Assembly: GCF_055900595.2 (NCBI RefSeq)
Contig: NZ_CM148325.1
Strand: one strand, 5' to 3'
DNA: 64,000 nucleotides
Shown here: in pieces, positions 30,757 to 40,205 of the stretch
Numbering within the stretch: position 1 is the first letter of the stretch
Layout of the letters: every line of letters begins with the position of its first letter
Notes under the pieces: model-generated
Told to the model about the DNA's origin: nothing
The model's database searches: none
What the model saw: only the letters and a program-made list of their open reading frames with translations
Program-made: the position numbers and the translations under genes

Positions 30757-31497
30757 GTGAAGTTCAAAGTTATCGCCCTGGCGGCATTAATGGGTATTAG
30801 CGGGATGGCAGCGCAGGCTAACGAATTGCCGGATGGACCGCATATTGTCACCTCCGGTACGGCAAGCGTGGATGCGGTGCCAGACATTGCCACTCTTGCG
30901 ATTGAAGTCAACGTGGCCGCGAAGGATGCCGCTACTGCCAAGAAACAGGCGGATGAGCGCGTCGCACAATACATTTCCTTCCTTGAACTCAATCAGATCG
31001 CGAAAAAAGATATCAGCTCAGCGAACTTACGCACCCAGCCAGATTATGATTATCAGGATGGTAAAAGTATCCTGAAAGGCTACCGTGCTGTGAGAACGGT
31101 GGAAGTCACGCTCCGTCAGTTAGACAAACTGAATTCCTTGCTGGATGGTGCGCTGAAGGCGGGTCTTAACGAAATTCGTTCTGTATCGCTGGGCGTGGCG
31201 CAGCCGGATGCCTATAAAGACAAAGCGCGTAAGGCAGCGATTGATAACGCGATTCATCAGGCGCAGGAACTGGCGAACGGCTTTCATCGTAAACTAGGGC
31301 CGGTATATAGCGTGCGCTACCATGTTTCCAACTATCAGCCCAGCCCAATGGTGCGGATGATGAAAGCCGATGCCGCGCCGGTCTCAGCCCAGGAAACTTA
31401 CGAGCAGGCTGCTATTCAGTTTGATGATCAGGTCGATGTGGTCTTCCAGTTAGAACCTGTGGATCAACAACCCGCTAAAACACCTGCCGCACAATAA
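30757..31497 (+). CDS. yggE: DUF541 periplasmic protein YggE (246 aa)
   Basis: GTG start; signal peptide MKFKVIALAALMGISGMAAQA; full-length match. Confidence 0.9.
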   Translation: MKFKVIALAALMGISGMAAQANELPDGPHIVTSGTASVDAVPDIATLAIEVNVAAKDAATAKKQADERVAQYISFLELNQIAKKDISSANLRTQPDYDYQDGKSILKGYRAVRTVEVTLRQLDKLNSLLDGALKAGLNEIRSVSLGVAQPDAYKDKARKAAIDNAIHQAQELANGFHRKLGPVYSVRYHVSNYQPSPMVRMMKADAAPVSAQETYEQAAIQFDDQVDVVFQLEPVDQQPAKTPAAQ

Positions 31498-31664
31498 TAC
31501 TTGTAGCCCGACGTATTGGTCGGGCTAATGCCTTTACCCGATATTGCCTCCTTTTTCTGTAATTTTCTGTAAAACCATGACGTAATCACCTATCTTTGCT
31601 CGCGGTTTCATCAAGGATAGGCTAACTGAAACGGTTAAGCGGACAAGGATGCGGGGGAGCTGGG

Positions 31665-32561
31665 ATGGACATTTTTATTTCGAAAAAGATGCGCAATTTC
31701 ATTTTATTAGCGCAAACTAATAATATTGCCCGGGCGGCAGAAAAAATCCATATGACGGCTTCGCCATTTGGCAAAAGCATTGCCGCGCTGGAAGAACAAA
31801 TTGGCTATACGCTATTTACCCGCAAAGATAATAATATCAGCCTCAATAAAGCCGGGCAGGAACTGTATCAAAAACTGTTCCCGGTTTATCAACGGCTTTC
31901 TGCGATTGATAATGAAATCCATAACTCAGGACGTTGTTCACGAGAAATTGTGATAGGCATAGATAATACTTATCCGACCATTATTTTTGATCAGTTGATT
32001 AGTCTCGGAGATAAGTACGAAGGCGTGACCGCCCAGCCAGTTGAGTTCAGCGAAAACGGCGTTATCGATAATCTTTTTGACCGTCAGTTAGATTTTATAA
32101 TCTCCCCACAGCATGTATCTGCACGAGTTCAGGAACTGGAAAACCTGACTATTAGTGAACTACCACCGCTGCGATTGGGCTTTCTCGTTTCTCGCCGTTA
32201 TGAAGAGCGACAAGAGCAAGAGTTGCTTCAGGAGCTACCCTGGCTACAAATGCGCTTTCAGAACCGGGCCAACTTCGAAGCAATGATTGATGCGAATATG
32301 CGTCCTTGTGGGATCAATCCCACCATTATTTATCGACCTTACAGTTTTATGGCCAAAATCAGCGCCGTGGAGCGCGGACATTTTCTGACGGTGATCCCGC
32401 ATTTTGCCTGGCGACTGGTTAATCCGGCAACGCTGAAATATTTTGATGCGCCGCACAGGCCGATGTATATGCAGGAATATCTTTATTCAATCAGAAATCA
32501 TCGTTATACCGCCACGATGCTTCAGCATATTGCTGAAGATCGTGACGGGACGAGTCATTAA
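31665..32561 (+). CDS. ygfI: LysR-family transcriptional regulator YgfI (298 aa)
   Basis: N-terminal HTH region and LysR substrate-binding domain length; 3' end overlaps the convergent scpC stop by 4 nt. Confidence 0.85.
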   Translation: MDIFISKKMRNFILLAQTNNIARAAEKIHMTASPFGKSIAALEEQIGYTLFTRKDNNISLNKAGQELYQKLFPVYQRLSAIDNEIHNSGRCSREIVIGIDNTYPTIIFDQLISLGDKYEGVTAQPVEFSENGVIDNLFDRQLDFIISPQHVSARVQELENLTISELPPLRLGFLVSRRYEERQEQELLQELPWLQMRFQNRANFEAMIDANMRPCGINPTIIYRPYSFMAKISAVERGHFLTVIPHFAWRLVNPATLKYFDAPHRPMYMQEYLYSIRNHRYTATMLQHIAEDRDGTSH

Positions 32562-34036
32562 CCCAGCATCGAGCCGGTTGCAATTAAATTACGGTGTAAA
32601 TCGAAGACGTGGCTAAGATCGTGGTGAATATGTCCGCCGGGCGCATTTTCCAGATAGCGATGCAGATAATCCCTATACATAGGATGTGCACAATTATCAA
32701 TGATGGTGCGGGCGCGTTGAAGCGGGGAAAGACCACGCAGATCGGCGATCCCTTGTTCGGTGATGATCACTTTGACGCTGTGTTCGCTGTGATCAACATG
32801 GCTGCACATTGGCACGACGGTTGAGATCTTGCCTTCTTTAGCAATCGACGGGGCCATAAAGATCGACAGATACGCGTTGCGTTCAAAATCACCGCTGCCA
32901 CCGATGCCGTTCATCAGATCGACCCCGGCTACGTGCGTTGAGTTGGCATGCCCGTAAATATCAAACTCCAGGCCGACGTTCAGAGCGATGACGCCCAGAC
33001 GACGGATGATTTCCGGGTTATTGGAAATCTCCTGCGGACGCAACACAATGCGGCTGGCAAAGTAATCCATATTGTCGTAAATCTTGCGCAGGGAATCGGC
33101 CGAGATAGTCAGGCTGGAGGCGCTGGCCCCGCTGATTTTGCCCGTTTCCAGTAAATGCACCACCGATTCCTGTAGCACTTCCGAATACATCATGAACGGA
33201 GGAATTTCCGGGTTTTCCCCTAGTCGCGCCATGACTGCATTATTGATATTGCCCACGCCACTTTGCAGCGGCAGAAATTCCGGTGGAATACGCCCATGCG
33301 CCATTTCCTGCAACAAGAACGTGACCACGTTATCGGCAATCTGCTGGCACATGGGATTTTGCTTATCCAGCATATTACCGGCGTCGGGCAAGTTGGTTTC
33401 CACGACGGCGACAATCTTTTTCGGATCGATTTGCACATAGCGGGTACCGACGCGATCCATTGCATGGAAGATCGACACGCTATTGCGCCGCGGTGGCGCG
33501 CCAGGAATCACAATATCCGCCAGTTCTGCAACGCGCGGATCGTGATAGTGATTGAGTTCAATGATCACTTTCTTCGCCCGCAGCAGCCAGGTCGGCGCAT
33601 TACCGATCCCGCTGGTTAACCAGACTCGGCCATCCGGTGCCAGTGCCGATGCTTCAATGACGGCAACATCAATTTCGCCGAAGAAACCGTAATTGACCAT
33701 TTGCGCCACTTCGCTCAAATGCAGGTCAACGAAACTCACCGCGCCCTGATTGATCTTTTTACGTAAACCGGACGATGTTTGATATGGCGCACGCCAGGAA
33801 ACAGCATCGGCGTCAGAAAGTACATCGTCAGCGGCGGCGCTGATTGACGCCCCCGTCAGCAGGCGAATTTGATACGGCTTTTTGGCCTCATGCTGTTCGT
33901 TAGCTCTGCGGGCAATCGCGTTGGGTAGGGCTTTCGGCGAACCCGCCGGGGTAAAGCCGCTAAATGCCACCATGTCGTTATGCTGGATAATTTCTGCCGC
34001 TTCATCGGCGGTCATCCTTGTCCACTGAGTTTCCAT
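32558..34036 (-). CDS. scpC: propionyl-CoA:succinate CoA-transferase (492 aa)
   Basis: Full-length match to ScpC/YgfH. Confidence 0.9.
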   Translation of the reverse strand: METQWTRMTADEAAEIIQHNDMVAFSGFTPAGSPKALPNAIARRANEQHEAKKPYQIRLLTGASISAAADDVLSDADAVSWRAPYQTSSGLRKKINQGAVSFVDLHLSEVAQMVNYGFFGEIDVAVIEASALAPDGRVWLTSGIGNAPTWLLRAKKVIIELNHYHDPRVAELADIVIPGAPPRRNSVSIFHAMDRVGTRYVQIDPKKIVAVVETNLPDAGNMLDKQNPMCQQIADNVVTFLLQEMAHGRIPPEFLPLQSGVGNINNAVMARLGENPEIPPFMMYSEVLQESVVHLLETGKISGASASSLTISADSLRKIYDNMDYFASRIVLRPQEISNNPEIIRRLGVIALNVGLEFDIYGHANSTHVAGVDLMNGIGGSGDFERNAYLSIFMAPSIAKEGKISTVVPMCSHVDHSEHSVKVIITEQGIADLRGLSPLQRARTIIDNCAHPMYRDYLHRYLENAPGGHIHHDLSHVFDLHRNLIATGSMLG

Positions 34037-34059
34037 TTTTACTCCTTCGTTCGCAGGGA

Positions 34060-34845
34060 TTAATGACCAACGAAATTAGGTTTACGTTTTTCGAGGAAAG
34101 CGTTCATCCCTTCCTGGTAATCTTCGCTGTCATAAACCGCGCGGCGCATCCCCTGAATACGTTCAAATTCATCGGAGTTCATGGTGTGCGCTTCGCCCAG
34201 TACACGCAGTTCTTCTTTGATAACGGCAATGGCTAACGGCGCTTTCTCAGAGATGTGGTGCGCCATTTGTAAGGTGAAATCTTCCAGTTCTTCCACTTCC
34301 ACAACATGGTTGAGGATGCCGACAGCCAGCGCGCGCTGGGCTGTGATTGGCGAAGCGGTAAAAATCAGCTCTTTGACAATGTGGAAGCCCGCGTCGCGGG
34401 TCAGGTTGTGAATGCCGACCAGGTTATACGGGACGCCGAGGTTTACAGGCGTCATTGAGAAGGTTGAGGTACTGGCGGCGATGATCAGATCGGAATTCAT
34501 GATCATTTCAAATGCGCCCCCCCAAACACTACCTTCCACCATCGAAATGATCGGTTTCGGGAATTTTTGGATCATGCGGGTGATTTGACGCAACGGATCA
34601 TCATAGGAGAGCGGATCGCGACCGCCAGACGGCAGTTCGTGAATATCGTGACCTGCGGAGAAGACTTTGGATCCACTCGGCGCGCGCAAAATGATACAGC
34701 GAATTTCCGGCCGGTTGAGATCGCTTAATGCCTGCATAAGATCATCAATAAAGACTTTACTTAAGGCATTAAGTTTTCGGCCATAGTTAAACTCAATGAC
34801 CGCCACTTTGTTGATAGTGACAACGTTCACATACTGATAAGACAT
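34060..34845 (-). CDS. scpB: methylmalonyl-CoA decarboxylase, crotonase fold (261 aa)
   Basis: Track ORF trimmed 14 codons to MSYQYVNVVTINKVAVIEF... Confidence 0.9.
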   Translation of the reverse strand: MSYQYVNVVTINKVAVIEFNYGRKLNALSKVFIDDLMQALSDLNRPEIRCIILRAPSGSKVFSAGHDIHELPSGGRDPLSYDDPLRQITRMIQKFPKPIISMVEGSVWGGAFEMIMNSDLIIAASTSTFSMTPVNLGVPYNLVGIHNLTRDAGFHIVKELIFTASPITAQRALAVGILNHVVEVEELEDFTLQMAHHISEKAPLAIAVIKEELRVLGEAHTMNSDEFERIQGMRRAVYDSEDYQEGMNAFLEKRKPNFVGH

Positions 34846-34855
34846 AAAAATTCCT

Positions 34856-35851
34856 TTAATCAAAATATTGCGTCTGGATAAATTCACTGAGCTGTCGCAG
34901 GCCGGTGCGCGGTGAGAGCGTATTGTTTTTGACCGCTAAAAGCGTCTGGCGGTAATAGCGATCGAAATCTTCATTCGCGAACAGGTGATTCAGTACTTCT
35001 TCTTCGGTTTGTTTACGCAGCCATTCCACCGATTGTTGTTGCCGCACTTGCTGTAAACGACCACTGGCAGTTAGCGCGGTTTTGAAGTCGATGATGGCGT
35101 GCCAGATCTCATCGATTCCACGTTTTTCCAGTGCGCTACAAGTCAGAACTCGTGGCTGCCATTCGTCGTATTTACGTCGCAGAATATGCAGGGCACTCTC
35201 GTACATATGCCGGGCAATGGCGACATTGGTATGGTTATCGCCATCGTCTTTGTTGATAACGATCAGATCTGCCACTTCCATCAGCCCCTTTTTAATCCCC
35301 TGCAGATCATCGCCGCCACCGGCAATTTGCAACGAGATAAAACAGTCCACCATGCGGGCGACTTCCGTTTCCGACTGTCCGACGCCAACCGTTTCGACAA
35401 TCACTACGTCATAACCCGCCGCTTCGCATAACAGCATTAATTCCCGCGCTCGCTGACTGGCACCGCCCAGATGGCCGGAGGATGGTACCGGGCGAATAAA
35501 CGCCGCCTCGGCACGCGCCAGGTCATTCATGCGGGTTTTATCTCCGAGAATGCTACCGCCAGTGACCGGGCTGCTGGGATCGACCGCAATAACTGCAACC
35601 TTTAGTCCCTCACGAATCAACAACATGCCAAAGGCTTCAAGAAAGGTACTTTTCCCCGCGCCGGGTGTGCCGGTAACACCCAGTCGCAGGGCGTTACCAC
35701 AGAACGGCATAATGGCATCAAGCAGTTGCGTACTTAGCGCCTGATGACGCGGGTGACGGCTTTCCACCAGCGTCATGGCCTGGGCGAGCGTGGCACGCTC
35801 ACCCTGACGTAAGCGGCGAATACTTTCTGCCAGCGTAGCTTCATTAATCAT
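34856..35851 (-). CDS. argK: MeaB-like G-protein chaperone of methylmalonyl-CoA mutase (331 aa)
   Basis: P-loop GTPGAGKST visible; full length. Confidence 0.9.
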
Positions 35852-37988
35852 GATGCTGGCTTATCAGATTCAGTACGTCGCGCACGCTGTCGAGCATAGG
35901 CGTACCTGGACCATAAATCGCCGCCACGCCGCGCTCCTGCAGGAAGGCGTAATCCTGCGGCGGAATGACGCCACCCGCGACCACGCAGATATCTTCGCGT
36001 CCCCATTTTTTCAGCGCTTCGACCAGTTCCGGGATCAGCGTTTTATGACCGGCAGCCAGTGAAGATGCGCCCACTACGTGAACGTCGTTTTCTACTGCCA
36101 GGCGGGCGATCTCTTCAGGTGTAGAGAACATCGGGCTTAAATCTACGTCGAAACCGAGATCGGAATAGGCGCTGGCGATCACTTTCGCGCCGCGATCGTG
36201 CCCATCCTGGCCCATTTTGGCGATCAGAATGCGCGGGCGACGACCATTGTCGGCAAGGAACTGCTCCGTTTGCGCAACAATGGCATCGAACTCGGAGGCC
36301 GATTTCTCAGACTGATGATAGCTTTGCGCAATCACGCCGGTAACACACTGGCTTGGCACCAGATAACGGTCGAAAGCGGCTTCCAGCGCATCGGAAATTT
36401 CACCCAGGGTGGCGCGAACGCGAGCGGCATTAACAGCGGCAGCCAGCAGGTTTTCGTTATGCTGTGCGGCGTGAGTCAGGGCGTTCAACGCGGCGGTTAC
36501 GGCGGCATCATCACGGGTGGCGCGAATGCGTTCCAGCGAAGCAATTTGCTCGTTACGCACCATCACGTTGTCGATCTCAAGTACATCGGTTTCGTCTTCG
36601 TGATCCAGTTTGTACTTGTTGACACCAACGATGACACGTTTTCCCTGATCGATCAGCGACTGTTCACGCGCTGAGGCTTCTTCGATCATTCGTTTTGGCA
36701 GACCTGCTTCGATCGCTTTCGCCATACCTCCGGCTTCGTTGATCTGTTGGATAATGGCTCTGGCTTGTTTGACGATTTGATCGGTCAGCGATTCAACGTA
36801 ATAGGATCCGGCCAGTGGATCGACGGTGCGGCAGAGTTCTGATTCTTCCTGAATGATGATCTGGGTATTGCGGGCAATGCGTGCTGAGAAATCGGTAGGC
36901 AAACCAAGCGCTTCATCAAAGGCGTTGGTATGCAGTGACTGAGTACCGCCCAGCGTTGCAGCCAGTGCTTCAATGGTGGTGCGGATAACGTTGTTATACG
37001 GATCCTGTTCAGTCAGGCTCCAGCCTGAGGTCTGGCAGTGGGTACGCAGCGCCAGTGATTTCGGATCCTGTGCGCCAAATCCACTGACCGCTTCGCTCCA
37101 TAAATAACGTGCCGCACGCAACATGGCGACGTTCATAAACAGATCCATGCCAATGCCGAAGAAAAACGACAGGCGAGGAGCGAAGTCATCAATTTTCAGC
37201 CCAGCGGAGATTGCTGCTTTGATGTACTCAATCCCATCAGCGAGCGTAAATGCTACCTGCTGCACGCAGTTGGCACCCGCTTCACCCATATGGTAACCGC
37301 TGATACTGATGGTATTAAATCGCGGCATGTTGCCGGAACACCAGGCGATGATGTCTGCGATAATACGCATTGACGGTTTTGGCGGGTAAATATAGGTGTT
37401 GCGGCAAAGATACTCTTTGAGGATATCGTTCTGAATGGTGCCTGTCAGTTTATCGGGCGTAACTCCTTGCTCTTCTGCGGCGACGATATAAAACGCCAGT
37501 ACGGGTAACACTGCGCCATTCATGGTCATCGAAACCGACATTTTATCCAGCGGGATCTGGTCGAACAGGACTTTCATATCTTCCACGGTGTCGATAGCAA
37601 CGCCCGCTTTGCCGACGTCGCCCGCCACGCGCGGGTTATCGGAGTCGTAGCCACGGTGGGTGGCAAGGTCAAACGCAACGGAAAGACCTTTTTGCCCGGC
37701 GGCCAGGTTACGGCGATAAAAAGCGTTAGACTCTTTTGCTGTCGAGAAACCGGCATACTGACGGATAGTCCACGGTTGGGCGGTATACATAGTGGCACGC
37801 GGGCCACGAACGTAGGGTGGCAAACCAGGAAGGGTACCAGTCACTTCCAGATTATCGAGATCGGCTTCAGTATACAGCGGCTTGATGGCGATCCCTTCTG
37901 CGGTTTGCTGAACCAGCGAGTCGACAGTTTTCTCCCGACGACTCAATTCCTTGTTGGCAATCTGTTGCCACTCCTGCACGTTAGACAT
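35844..37988 (-). CDS. scpA: B12-dependent methylmalonyl-CoA mutase, 'sleeping beauty mutase' (714 aa)
   Basis: Track ORF trimmed 7 codons to MSNVQEWQQ...; 8-nt overlap with argK. Confidence 0.92.
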
Positions 37989-38191
37989 TATTTGCTCCAT
38001 AAAACGCAATCAAAATGAGGGTATTTGCGCTTACGGTGAGCTTTTTACGTGGGTTTGTCGCCAGCAAAAAAAATGCATCCAGACGTCGTTTTTTGCCGCC
38101 TGAGATTTGTCTATTTTGTGATGTGATTCAAGGAATACAAAAAGAACTGGAGGTGATGCCTGGTATGTATTACCAGGCATTATTTGATGGA

Positions 38192-39085
38192 TTATTCCTG
38201 ACGAAGAACTTTGTGACCATAATCGAGCAACGCATCAGTGACTTTACGCATCATGCGGCTTTCAGGAGCAAAGCGGTGCCAGTAGAGCATCCGGCGTTGA
38301 AATAGCCCTGGCGTTAAGTCAATCAGTTCGCCGCTGGCCAGCTCTTTCTCGATTTGCAGGTGCGGGATCATACAGCAGGTGGTGCCCTGACGAGCAAGTT
38401 GCACGAATGCTTCCGAAGAATTAACGATATGGCACGGTACGCTGCCTGGGGGCAGATCGAAGTTTTGCTGCAAAAAGGCCTGGTGCATATCGTCAAGATG
38501 GTCAAAGGCGACCACAGGTGCTTTCAATAATGCCGAACGCGTTACGCCGTTAGGGAAATATTTTTCGGCAAACGGTTTTGAGCTGACGAACAGATAGTCA
38601 AGCGCACCGAGCTTATCGACAAGACAACTCGGCAGCGCCTGATGTTGAATACTCACCGCGCCGACCACTTCGCCGCGGCGCAGACGTTCCTGAGTGCGGG
38701 TTTCATCTTCTACCTGCAAGTTGAGGCGGATAGGCGAATCAGCTAACACAGGAGCCAGCGCCGGAAGCAACCACGTCGCCAGACTGTCAGCGTTGACCGC
38801 CAGTGAAAGCAGCAGCGGAGTTGAACCGGTTTGTTCATCGCCCAGCCACTCTTCTTCCAGTAACTCCACCTGGCGTAGCAGTGCCAGCAGTTTTTGCCCT
38901 TGTTCCGTCGGGCGCGGCGGTACGGTACGCACCAACAGCGGCTGCCCGAACATATTTTCCAGTTGCTTAATGCGCTGTGAGACGGCTGATTGTGTAATGC
39001 ACAGCTTTTGTGCCGCGCGCTCAAATCCTCGTTCACGTATCACCGCATCCAGTGCCTGTAATGTTCTGTAGTCCGGGCGTTTCAT
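38192..39085 (-). CDS. argP: LysR-family regulator ArgP/IciA (297 aa)
   Basis: Track ORF trimmed 22 codons to [28 protein letters not shown]... Confidence 0.92.
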
Positions 39086-39382
39086 TGCTGTTGTCTGCTC
39101 CTGGTAAATGCTTTTTCCTGCACTATGACACAATTTTGCGTCAGGTTGCATATACCGAAGCCGTCGGCGGGTACATTTGTATCAGTGGTTAAACACGCAG
39201 CTTAAAAGATCAGGGATTTGCGCTATTGCATTTCGCTCAGCGAGTTCGCGCCCTGGAGCGGCATACCCAGACCTTTATATGCTTTATTTGCCGGGCGAAA
39301 GGGGATGCCCGCCATTGCGCGATATTTTATGGATGAGTTAACCACGCGGCTTGCCAACGGGGTCTGAATCGCTTTTTTTGTA

Positions 39383-39507
39383 TATACTCGTCATACTTCA
39401 AGTTGCATGTGCTGTGTCTGCGTTCGCTCACCCCAGTCACTTACTTCTGTAAGCTCCTGGGGATTCACTCTCTTGTCGCCTTCCTGCAACTCGAATTATT
39501 TAGAGTA
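39383..39507 (-). repeat. ERIC element, inverted relative to the copy at 27441-27566
   Basis: Reverse complement of the pgk-fbaA ERIC with only a couple of mismatches by eye. Confidence 0.85.
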
Positions 39508-39545
39508 TAATGCGAGTGAAATTTCATACCACAGGCGAAACGATC

Positions 39546-40205
39546 ATGACGCAGGATGAATTGAAAAAAGCAGTAGGATGGGCGGCACTTCAGTATGTTC
39601 AGCCCGGCACCATTGTTGGTGTAGGTACAGGTTCCACCGCCGCACACTTTATTGATGCGCTCGGCACGATGAAAGGCCAGATTGAAGGGGCCGTTTCCAG
39701 TTCGGATGCGTCCACTGAAAAACTGAAAAGCCTCGGCATTCACGTTTTTGATCTCAACGAAGTCGACAGCCTTGGCATCTACGTTGATGGCGCAGATGAA
39801 ATCAACGGCCACATGCAAATGATCAAAGGCGGCGGCGCGGCGCTGACCCGTGAAAAAATCATTGCTTCGGTTGCGGAAAAATTTATCTGTATTGCAGACG
39901 CTTCTAAGCAGGTTGATATTCTGGGCAAATTCCCGCTGCCAGTAGAAGTTATCCCGATGGCACGTAGTGCAGTGGCGCGCCAGCTGGTGAAACTGGGCGG
40001 TCGTCCGGAATACCGTCAGGGCGTGGTGACCGATAACGGCAACGTGATCCTCGACGTCCACGGCATGGAAATCCTTGACCCGATAGCGATGGAAAACGCC
40101 ATAAATGCGATTCCGGGCGTGGTGACTGTTGGCTTGTTTGCTAACCGTGGCGCGGACGTTGCGCTGATTGGCACACCTGACGGTGTCAAAACCATTGTGA
40201 AATGA
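39546..40205 (+). CDS. rpiA: ribose-5-phosphate isomerase A (219 aa)
   Basis: Track ORF trimmed 12 codons to [35 protein letters not shown]... Confidence 0.95.

Follow-up and report, generated by a model that had tools for sequence, protein, structure and literature searches.

The LysR-type gene srsR as a candidate regulator of the convergent scpA-argK-scpB-scpC operon in Escherichia coli

Classical LysR-type regulators are encoded beside the operon that they control, as is CynR beside cynTSX or IlvY beside ilvC. Here, we analyse a comparable neighbourhood in a 64,000-nucleotide stretch of Escherichia coli DNA (contig NZ_CM148325.1 of assembly GCF_055900595.2; this whole stretch is referred to as the window), in which the LysR-type gene srsR (ygfI) converges on the 3' end of the scpA-argK(meaB)-scpB-scpC operon. 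The region is the known, archetypal E. coli operon and has already been described, and its presence, as recorded in the initial annotation of the window, is textbook knowledge that adds nothing new. That annotation also implied, by its word 'regulator' and without argument, that SrsR acts on the operon. We hold with moderate confidence that the locus is best explained as the known operon with SrsR as its regulator, acting at a dyad upstream of scpA, and with the end of the operon at a hairpin inside srsR.

In gene order, strands, spacers and flanks, the window equals the K-12 operon b2917-b2920 (sbm-ygfD-ygfG-ygfH) with srsR as b2921, and there are no structural differences. The two differ by ~2.4% of nucleotides in the window and by 13 amino acid substitutions (five in ScpA, two in ArgK, one in ScpB, four in ScpC and one, R91C, in SrsR). 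The route encoded is B12-dependent and leads from succinyl-CoA through methylmalonyl-CoA and propionyl-CoA to propionate. It resembles the Wood-Werkman pathway of propionibacteria in having a B12 methylmalonyl-CoA mutase, a MeaB-type GTPase and a succinate-recycling CoA transferase (PMC5512728), whereas E. coli uses the biotin-independent decarboxylase ScpB in place of a transcarboxylase and has no epimerase gene in the operon. The native operon has been judged an incomplete pathway, since the ScpA product is the (R)-enantiomer while ScpB is held to take the (S)-form, and formation of propionate from glucose needed an added methylmalonyl-CoA epimerase (PMC5512728). The operon had been called complete; this holds for its four genes and needs qualifying for the pathway, in which the epimerase step is reported to be missing and for which added B12 is needed.

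The operon and its convergent neighbour

Gene coordinates were taken from the open reading frame (ORF) listing and the junction sequences, in agreement with how RefSeq annotates K-12 MG1655 and a strain that is 99% identical. The locus is laid out as follows.

31665-32561, plus strand: srsR (ygfI), LysR-type regulator of 298 amino acids, convergent with scpC
32558-32561, both strands: TTAA, in which the TAA stops of scpC and srsR share bases (4-nucleotide [nt] overlap)
32558-34036, minus strand: scpC (ygfH), propionyl-CoA:succinate CoA transferase of 492 amino acids
34060-34845, minus strand: scpB (ygfG), methylmalonyl-CoA decarboxylase of 261 amino acids
34856-35851, minus strand: argK/meaB (ygfD), mutase-associated GTPase of 331 amino acids
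35844-37988, minus strand: scpA (sbm), B12-dependent methylmalonyl-CoA mutase of 714 amino acids
38192-39085, minus strand: argP

The four enzymes and SrsR are full length, without internal stops, of the same lengths as in K-12 and 99% identical to it, and all score above the NCBIfam equivalog cut-offs. ScpA matches NF006944 with 1252 bits (cut-off 876; 709 of 714 residues identical to K-12), ArgK matches NF006958 (494 bits; 329/331), ScpB NF008506 (485 bits; 260/261), ScpC TIGR03458 (754 bits; 488/492) and SrsR the SrsR equivalog NF047842 (632 bits; 297/298). SrsR consists of an N-terminal HTH_1 and a C-terminal LysR_substrate domain. The equivalogs and the RefSeq annotation agree with the gene identities first assigned, and the four operon genes are intact, as had been claimed. 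The junction sequences bear out the tight spacing: the argK ATG lies within the 3' end of scpA, giving an 8-nt overlap (ATGATTAA, 35844-35851), argK and scpB are separated by 10 nt and scpB and scpC by 23 nt, and the 4-nt overlap of scpC with the convergent gene is as originally read. The span given at the outset, 32558-38009, is right at its lower end and wrong at its upper one: position 38009 is the TTG of the longest ORF, and scpA starts at the annotated ATG at 37988, which aligns across genera and has GGAG at 37998-37995, a correction of 21 nt. Similarly, scpB starts at the ATG at 34845, and the GTG at 34887 that opens its longest ORF is not the true start.

On the chromosome, the operon lies between argP and srsR-yggE-argO. 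The same layout is present in K-12 and in ~79% of complete E. coli genomes, and is therefore no chance feature of the window.

Conservation and decay of srsR with the operon

We scanned one genome per GTDB species with ScpC, followed by tblastn. The four-gene operon was found in 43 species loci of Enterobacterales and Aeromonas, and srsR lay convergent and directly after scpC in every one of them; with the four loci found via SrsR, the two genes are tail-to-tail in 47 of 47 species loci. The pairing is kept where argP, yggE and argO are absent, as in Yersinia, Kosakonia, Aeromonas, Superficieibacter, Sodalis, Acerihabitans and two metagenome-assembled genomes, and srsR accompanies the operon in no fewer than eight chromosomal settings. 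As a family, SrsR is narrow, comprising 56 clusters with identities of 60% or more. A further four divergent members (in Hafnia paralvei, in two metagenomic contigs and in a genome that bears the label 'Martelella alba') likewise abut scpC, again in new contexts, and no member away from scpC was found in the family search and locus checks. Given this constant linkage across contexts and the narrowness of the family, the five genes behave as one module. Such a pattern is the usual signature of a dedicated regulator and suggests, at the level of genome comparison, that SrsR serves the operon.

A natural 'minus regulator' comparison is provided by three loci of Methylococcales (L040, L042 and L046), which share the four genes and their order with the operon (ScpA 76-77% and ScpC 63-66% identical) but have neither srsR downstream nor the dyad described below upstream. 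In two of these loci, L040 and L042, the gap between scpB and scpC is at least 250 nt. A solitary second ScpC-like gene, 81% identical and perhaps a paralogue or a copy that has moved, is present in Citrobacter braakii ATCC 51113 (L048, 7001-8476), with none of scpA, argK, scpB and srsR close to it.

Loss of the operon within E. coli offers a further view of the pairing. The locus was matched in 5,425 of 5,426 complete genomes, and ~4,272 carry the whole of it. The remaining genomes keep ~30% of the locus, in the form of a 5' remnant of scpA fused to the final 153 nt of scpC. Since the identical junction is common to 1,113 of the 5,426 genomes, ST131 included, it can be ascribed to a single ancestral deletion of ~4.4 kb. 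The deletion and the state of srsR in genomes that carry it are as follows.

2166-4114 of L003 (E. coli ST131): example of the deletion, also present in L085-L087
srsR in ST131: stop codons S92* and W193*
srsR in VTB96929v: S92* alone
srsR in CRE287: in-frame deletion of 6 nt
srsR in GW-AmxH19: intact, with extra substitutions

Exact 61-mers place S92* in 552 genomes and W193* in 845. Between the window and K-12, two operon-intact lineages, the ratio of non-synonymous to synonymous polymorphism (pN/pS) of srsR is 0.01. Within the deletion lineage it is 0.76 (one pair, with three synonymous and eight non-synonymous changes, two of the latter being stops), and the flanking genes of the same pair give 0.12 for yggE and 0.00 for argP, the overall range for flanking genes being 0.00-0.12. 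These values, which are small in number and come from one deletion event, fit a release of srsR from constraint after the operon has been lost.

A dyad upstream of scpA and the case for SrsR

Regions upstream of scpA were aligned from differing chromosomal contexts, and a conserved element, GCGGCAAAAAAyGAC-N~13-TTTTTTGCTGGCGACAA, was seen. In the window, two features are of relevance here.

38064-38096, no strand assigned: dyad GCAAAAAA-N17-TTTTTTGC, candidate operator upstream of scpA
38117-38132, minus strand: CRP/FNR-type half-palindrome CTTGAATCACATCACA, a resemblance to the consensus only

The dyad has a single match in the 64-kb window and none in 100 shuffles. Its arms and spacing are exact in 31 scanned loci, including K-12, whose arms are identical to those of the window, and three more loci show one or two mismatches, while the 17-bp spacer varies. 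From the end of the dyad to the scpA ATG there are 71-75 nt in most loci. It is kept where argP is not adjacent, and is absent from the Methylococcales, which are without srsR. The arms include TTTTGC, which is the portion of the published SrsR box that is kept best. The CRP/FNR-type site takes the form TTTGA-N6-TCACA in most genera, and its position is conserved ~44 bp upstream of the dyad centre. We rejected the idea that the dyad forms an RNA hairpin or a terminator in a 5' leader: its arms consist of A/U alone, its 17-nt spacer is not conserved, and it is retained in loci without argP upstream.

Taken together with synteny, srsR would most likely be the fifth gene of the module and the operon's own LysR-type regulator, with SrsR acting at the dyad ~75 nt upstream of scpA, beside the CRP/FNR-type site. 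Such an arrangement shares with CynR- and IlvY-type systems the domains of the regulator (HTH_1 and LysR_substrate), strict linkage to one metabolic operon and an interrupted dyad upstream of the presumed target, scpA. It differs from them in that srsR stands at the 3' end of the operon and has no control region in common with it, and in that the dyad spans 33 bp, as against ~15 bp for the usual T-N11-A site.

A number of observations weigh against this assignment. A LysR regulator is as a rule transcribed divergently from its cognate target and not convergently with it, whereas srsR was found convergent at the operon 3' end in every locus, with no divergent shared control region. Yersinia has the right half of the dyad only and the Sodalis group has no dyad, though both have srsR. 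The dyad is placed relative to the scpA ATG only, which leaves its distance from the promoter undefined, and co-decay was observed in only a handful of genomes, sampled from a single deletion lineage. The main evidence against binding of SrsR at the dyad is an absent peak: genomic systematic evolution of ligands by exponential enrichment (SELEX) with purified SrsR on K-12 DNA, in which the exact dyad is present, gave 10 peaks (yfdO/yfdP, fucA/fucP, bluR, paaZ/paaA and others) and none at scpA, and the study does not mention the scp genes (PMC9181523). The 11-nt box derived there, TCAGATTTTGC, is too degenerate, with 36 matches in the window at up to two mismatches as compared to 24.7 expected, and box matching was rejected as a test. 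Chromatin immunoprecipitation with exonuclease treatment (ChIP-exo) and RNA sequencing of YgfI identified dhaKLM and fermentation genes as targets, and the scp genes are unmentioned in the accessible portions of the text and supplements of that study. A literature search found ygfI named alongside a gene of the operon solely in the genome announcement of a genome-reduced strain.

Upstream of srsR itself, the scpA dyad was sought as a sign of autoregulation and was not found. An unrelated conserved block, TTCTGTGAG-N3-CTGTAAAA (TTCTGTRAn-N3-CTGTAAAA), lies there at window positions 31560-31600 and is shared by Escherichia, Citrobacter, Klebsiella, Salmonella, Yokenella and, in a different chromosomal context, Superficieibacter. 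It could be the srsR promoter or operator.

Current descriptions of SrsR (YgfI/DhfA) are of a stationary-phase stress regulator, or of a dihydroxyacetone/formate regulator. The adjacency to the operon could thus be without functional meaning: SrsR would be a global stationary-phase or fermentation regulator (of yfdO/yfdP, fucAO, bluR, dhaKLM and others), and the scp genes would be controlled by others or be a decaying, Rho-silenced remnant. We consider this unlikely. It would accommodate published targets that lie elsewhere with none at scp, the biofilm, peroxide and glycerol phenotypes of the srsR mutant, a block by Rho of transcription into scpA, and the loss of the operon from one-fifth of complete E. 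coli genomes. However, the journey of srsR with the operon through its many contexts, and a family found only beside scpC, are left unexplained. Stops and near-neutral change in srsR also appear only after deletion of the operon, when yggE and argP are still constrained, and purifying selection on the enzymes is strong in lineages that retain the operon (99% identity), which does not favour a decaying remnant.

The 3' junction and the silence of the operon

The 4-nt stop overlap (YTAR) between scpC and srsR is present in 34 of 44 loci, and longer overlaps are seen in eight. Most overlaps in the other loci are of 6-40 nt; Aeromonas abuts with a gap of 0, Sodalis has a 186-nt spacer, and three loci found via SrsR have spacers of 3, 77 and 128 nt. 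On the scpC-sense strand, the junction is followed by two elements.

32509-32548, minus strand: conserved stem-loop of 40 nt, starting 10 nt after the scpC stop and lying inside srsR codons ~282-295
32490-32508, minus strand: U-rich tail UAUAACGAUGAUUUCUGAU, 3' of the hairpin, with GAUUUUUCA in most other genera

As the stop overlap leaves no intergenic space, the 3' stem-loop of the operon is written into the last ~17 codons of srsR. The hairpin, which contains G+C and lies directly downstream of the last gene of the operon, has a predicted free energy of about -31 kcal/mol. A 146-nt segment that includes it folds with a z-score of -3.5, and only 2 of 2,000 synonymous recodings of the SrsR peptide were equally stable. 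A comparable hairpin occurs at the same place in Escherichia, Citrobacter, Klebsiella, Salmonella, Yokenella, Pluralibacter, Superficieibacter, Aeromonas and Kosakonia sacchari. Across an alignment of 30 species, pairing holds in 91.6% of cells, and double-sided changes are seen at 8 of the 20 pairs; none of 500 shuffles equalled this, and controls in which the hairpin alignment was slid gave 28-54% pairing. Cells that pair solely through G.U are more numerous in the scpC sense (68) than in the srsR sense (18), and from this asymmetry the hairpin appears to be selected in the RNA of the operon.

The hairpin looks like a candidate terminator or 3' stabiliser of the scp transcript, of a non-canonical kind. 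Its tail in E. coli is UGAUUUCUGAUU; a U5 run lies 8-10 nt past the main stem and adjoins the stem only if an outer helix forms, and E. coli has UUUCUGAUU. The E. coli hairpin has no canonical adjacent U-tract and is not called by a simple terminator scan, both of which speak against termination here, as does the lack of an scpC 3' end in the tables of Adams et al. 2021, in which scpC and ygfI have no entries among 3' ends or Rho sites. If the hairpin does act as proposed, scp transcripts would probably end ~60-70 nt inside srsR.

For srsR transcripts, a terminator was sought on the srsR strand, and neither a conserved counterpart nor a strong C-rich, G-poor region was found. These transcripts probably run antisense into scpC until they meet Rho or a polymerase head-on. 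A small hairpin that has a U5 run was seen in Citrobacter, ~70 nt into scpC on the antisense side; it is not conserved and is absent from K-12.

A 2019 study by Ju and colleagues is said to describe convergent E. coli gene pairs that end at shared or bidirectional intrinsic terminators. The srsR/scpC junction is like such pairs, as described in a preprint (bioRxiv 2022.10.23.513370), in that the transcripts have to end within or next to each other and a stem-loop marks the junction. Unlike them, srsR and scpC have no intergenic DNA, so that the stem-loop is embedded in the coding sequence of the partner, and the stem-loop appears one-directional, given the G.U asymmetry and a U-rich tail on the scpC-sense strand only.

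The initial annotation had proposed that the overlap itself couples the two genes through transcriptional interference: polymerases or antisense RNA from srsR would lower the output of scpC and the operon, operon transcription would lower that of srsR, and the geometry would be the device. The zero-spacer, tail-to-tail layout is indeed conserved, and antisense transcription into scpC is plausible in that no terminator and no strong C-rich Rho-loading region lies past the srsR stop. Head-on polymerase collisions at convergent E. coli genes have also been described, in the same preprint. Nevertheless, the conserved hairpin past the scpC stop should limit operon transcripts to the last ~60-70 nt of srsR, and both units are weakly expressed in the laboratory (PMC3850637; low reads in Adams et al. 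2021), which would make collisions rare. Sodalis, 'Martelella alba' and a metagenomic relative keep the pair with spacers of 77-186 nt, showing that the overlap is dispensable, and the stop overlap may persist merely because changes must preserve two reading frames. Interference is a weaker reading than regulation of the operon by SrsR, and we judge it distinctly unlikely; as far as the genome comparisons go, synteny would be the stronger link between srsR and the operon.

It is very improbable that the 3' palindrome acts at the level of DNA or protein, as a protein-binding site or a by-product of a constrained SrsR C-terminal peptide: although it is a near-perfect 40-bp DNA palindrome, and synonymous recodings fold at a mean of -20 kcal/mol, so that part of the signal is in the amino acid sequence, the natural stability is hardly ever reached by recoding, the double-sided changes are compensatory where a protein-binding site would conserve bases and not pairing, the G.U-only pairs favour scpC-sense RNA, and the C-terminal tail is otherwise the least conserved part of SrsR, with variable ends.

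The operon is weakly expressed in laboratory strains, in support of the earlier statement on poor expression; its mutase requires added cobalamin (B12), and the host is without B12 synthesis (PMC3850637). Supplementary file 2 of Adams et al. 2021 lists a Rho-termination peak at K-12 position 3060897, 47 nt into scpA, with a Rho score of 11.0. Without bicyclomycin, the reads at this peak drop from 159 to 15; with the drug, the corresponding figures are 543 and 563. In wild-type cells, then, transcripts entering the operon are cut short early. A second Rho region, at K-12 position 3064032 (39 nt into scpB, Rho score 4.9; window ~34806), is reported in the same study. The position of the first in the window is given below.

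37935-37947 (~37941), minus strand: equivalent of the Rho peak in scpA, mapped by offset from the scpA start

Because the Rho block at the scpA start is bicyclomycin-sensitive, the operon is insulated from transcription from the argP side, and this block is one shown reason for its silence; from the Rho region at the scpB start, it follows that transcription across the operon is not uniform. The operon would be asleep on three accounts. Its promoter has no recognisable sigma-70 hexamers, and an activator with a co-inducer is probably needed; Rho, according to published data, halts transcription that enters scpA from upstream; and the mutase depends on external B12. A scan of 31300-39600 for sigma-70 promoters and simple terminators gave no more hits than chance would and did not detect the hairpin, and was used neither for nor against any reading. 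We regard as evenly poised the fuller proposal in which SrsR is a dedicated, ligand-dependent regulator of the operon at the dyad, the operon being silent without the co-inducer, the module mobile, the terminator set in srsR codons, and strong transcription of the operon feeding back on srsR.

Several features surround the operon. One of them was read from the sequence downstream of argP.

38156-38180, minus strand: hairpin ATGCCTGGTAATACATACCAGGCAT, 3' of the argP stop, a probable argP terminator

Only 4 of the 5,443 records that match positions 31500-39500 of the window do so with at least 99% identity, and identity to K-12 and most E. coli is just ~97.6%; the E. coli lineage from which the window derives is thus sparsely sampled. 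Between argP and rpiA (39380-39515) lies a ~130-bp dispersed repeat, unannotated in RefSeq, of which E. coli genomes have a median of five near-identical copies (maximum 10), and which accounts for the multiple 'places per genome' in searches with the locus by BLAST. It is probably an ERIC/IRU-type element, and its match to Rfam V_AS5 is below threshold (41 bits, gathering score 96). This was the sole match in an Rfam scan of 31000-39600 and lies outside the operon, at which no riboswitch or known RNA was found. In E. coli 2020CK-00188 (L004, 8727-8957), the region between argP and rpiA has a 231-nt ORF annotated as 'LysR substrate-binding domain-containing protein', which corresponds to the yqfE pseudogene of K-12. 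This yqfE-like ORF is a third LysR-related sequence at the locus, and the equivalent place in the window has no listed ORF of at least 60 amino acids.

The findings touch on the puzzle of why E. coli keeps a silent, B12-dependent mutase operon, and for what purpose. If SrsR is the regulator of this operon, the search for its ligand and for the condition that wakes the operon becomes testable, and engineers who now swap the promoter for production of propionate, 1-propanol or odd-chain polymers would have a native switch. A recent preprint reports that a change in the proteostasis of host worms was no longer seen when the sbm operon had been deleted. About one-fifth of complete E. coli genomes, including ST131, are without the operon, and this difference between strains could matter for interactions with the host. 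The hairpin neatly illustrates how a terminator-like RNA structure can lie inside the coding sequence of a convergent gene. As a hypothesis on what could wake the operon, regulation by SrsR is concrete and inexpensive.

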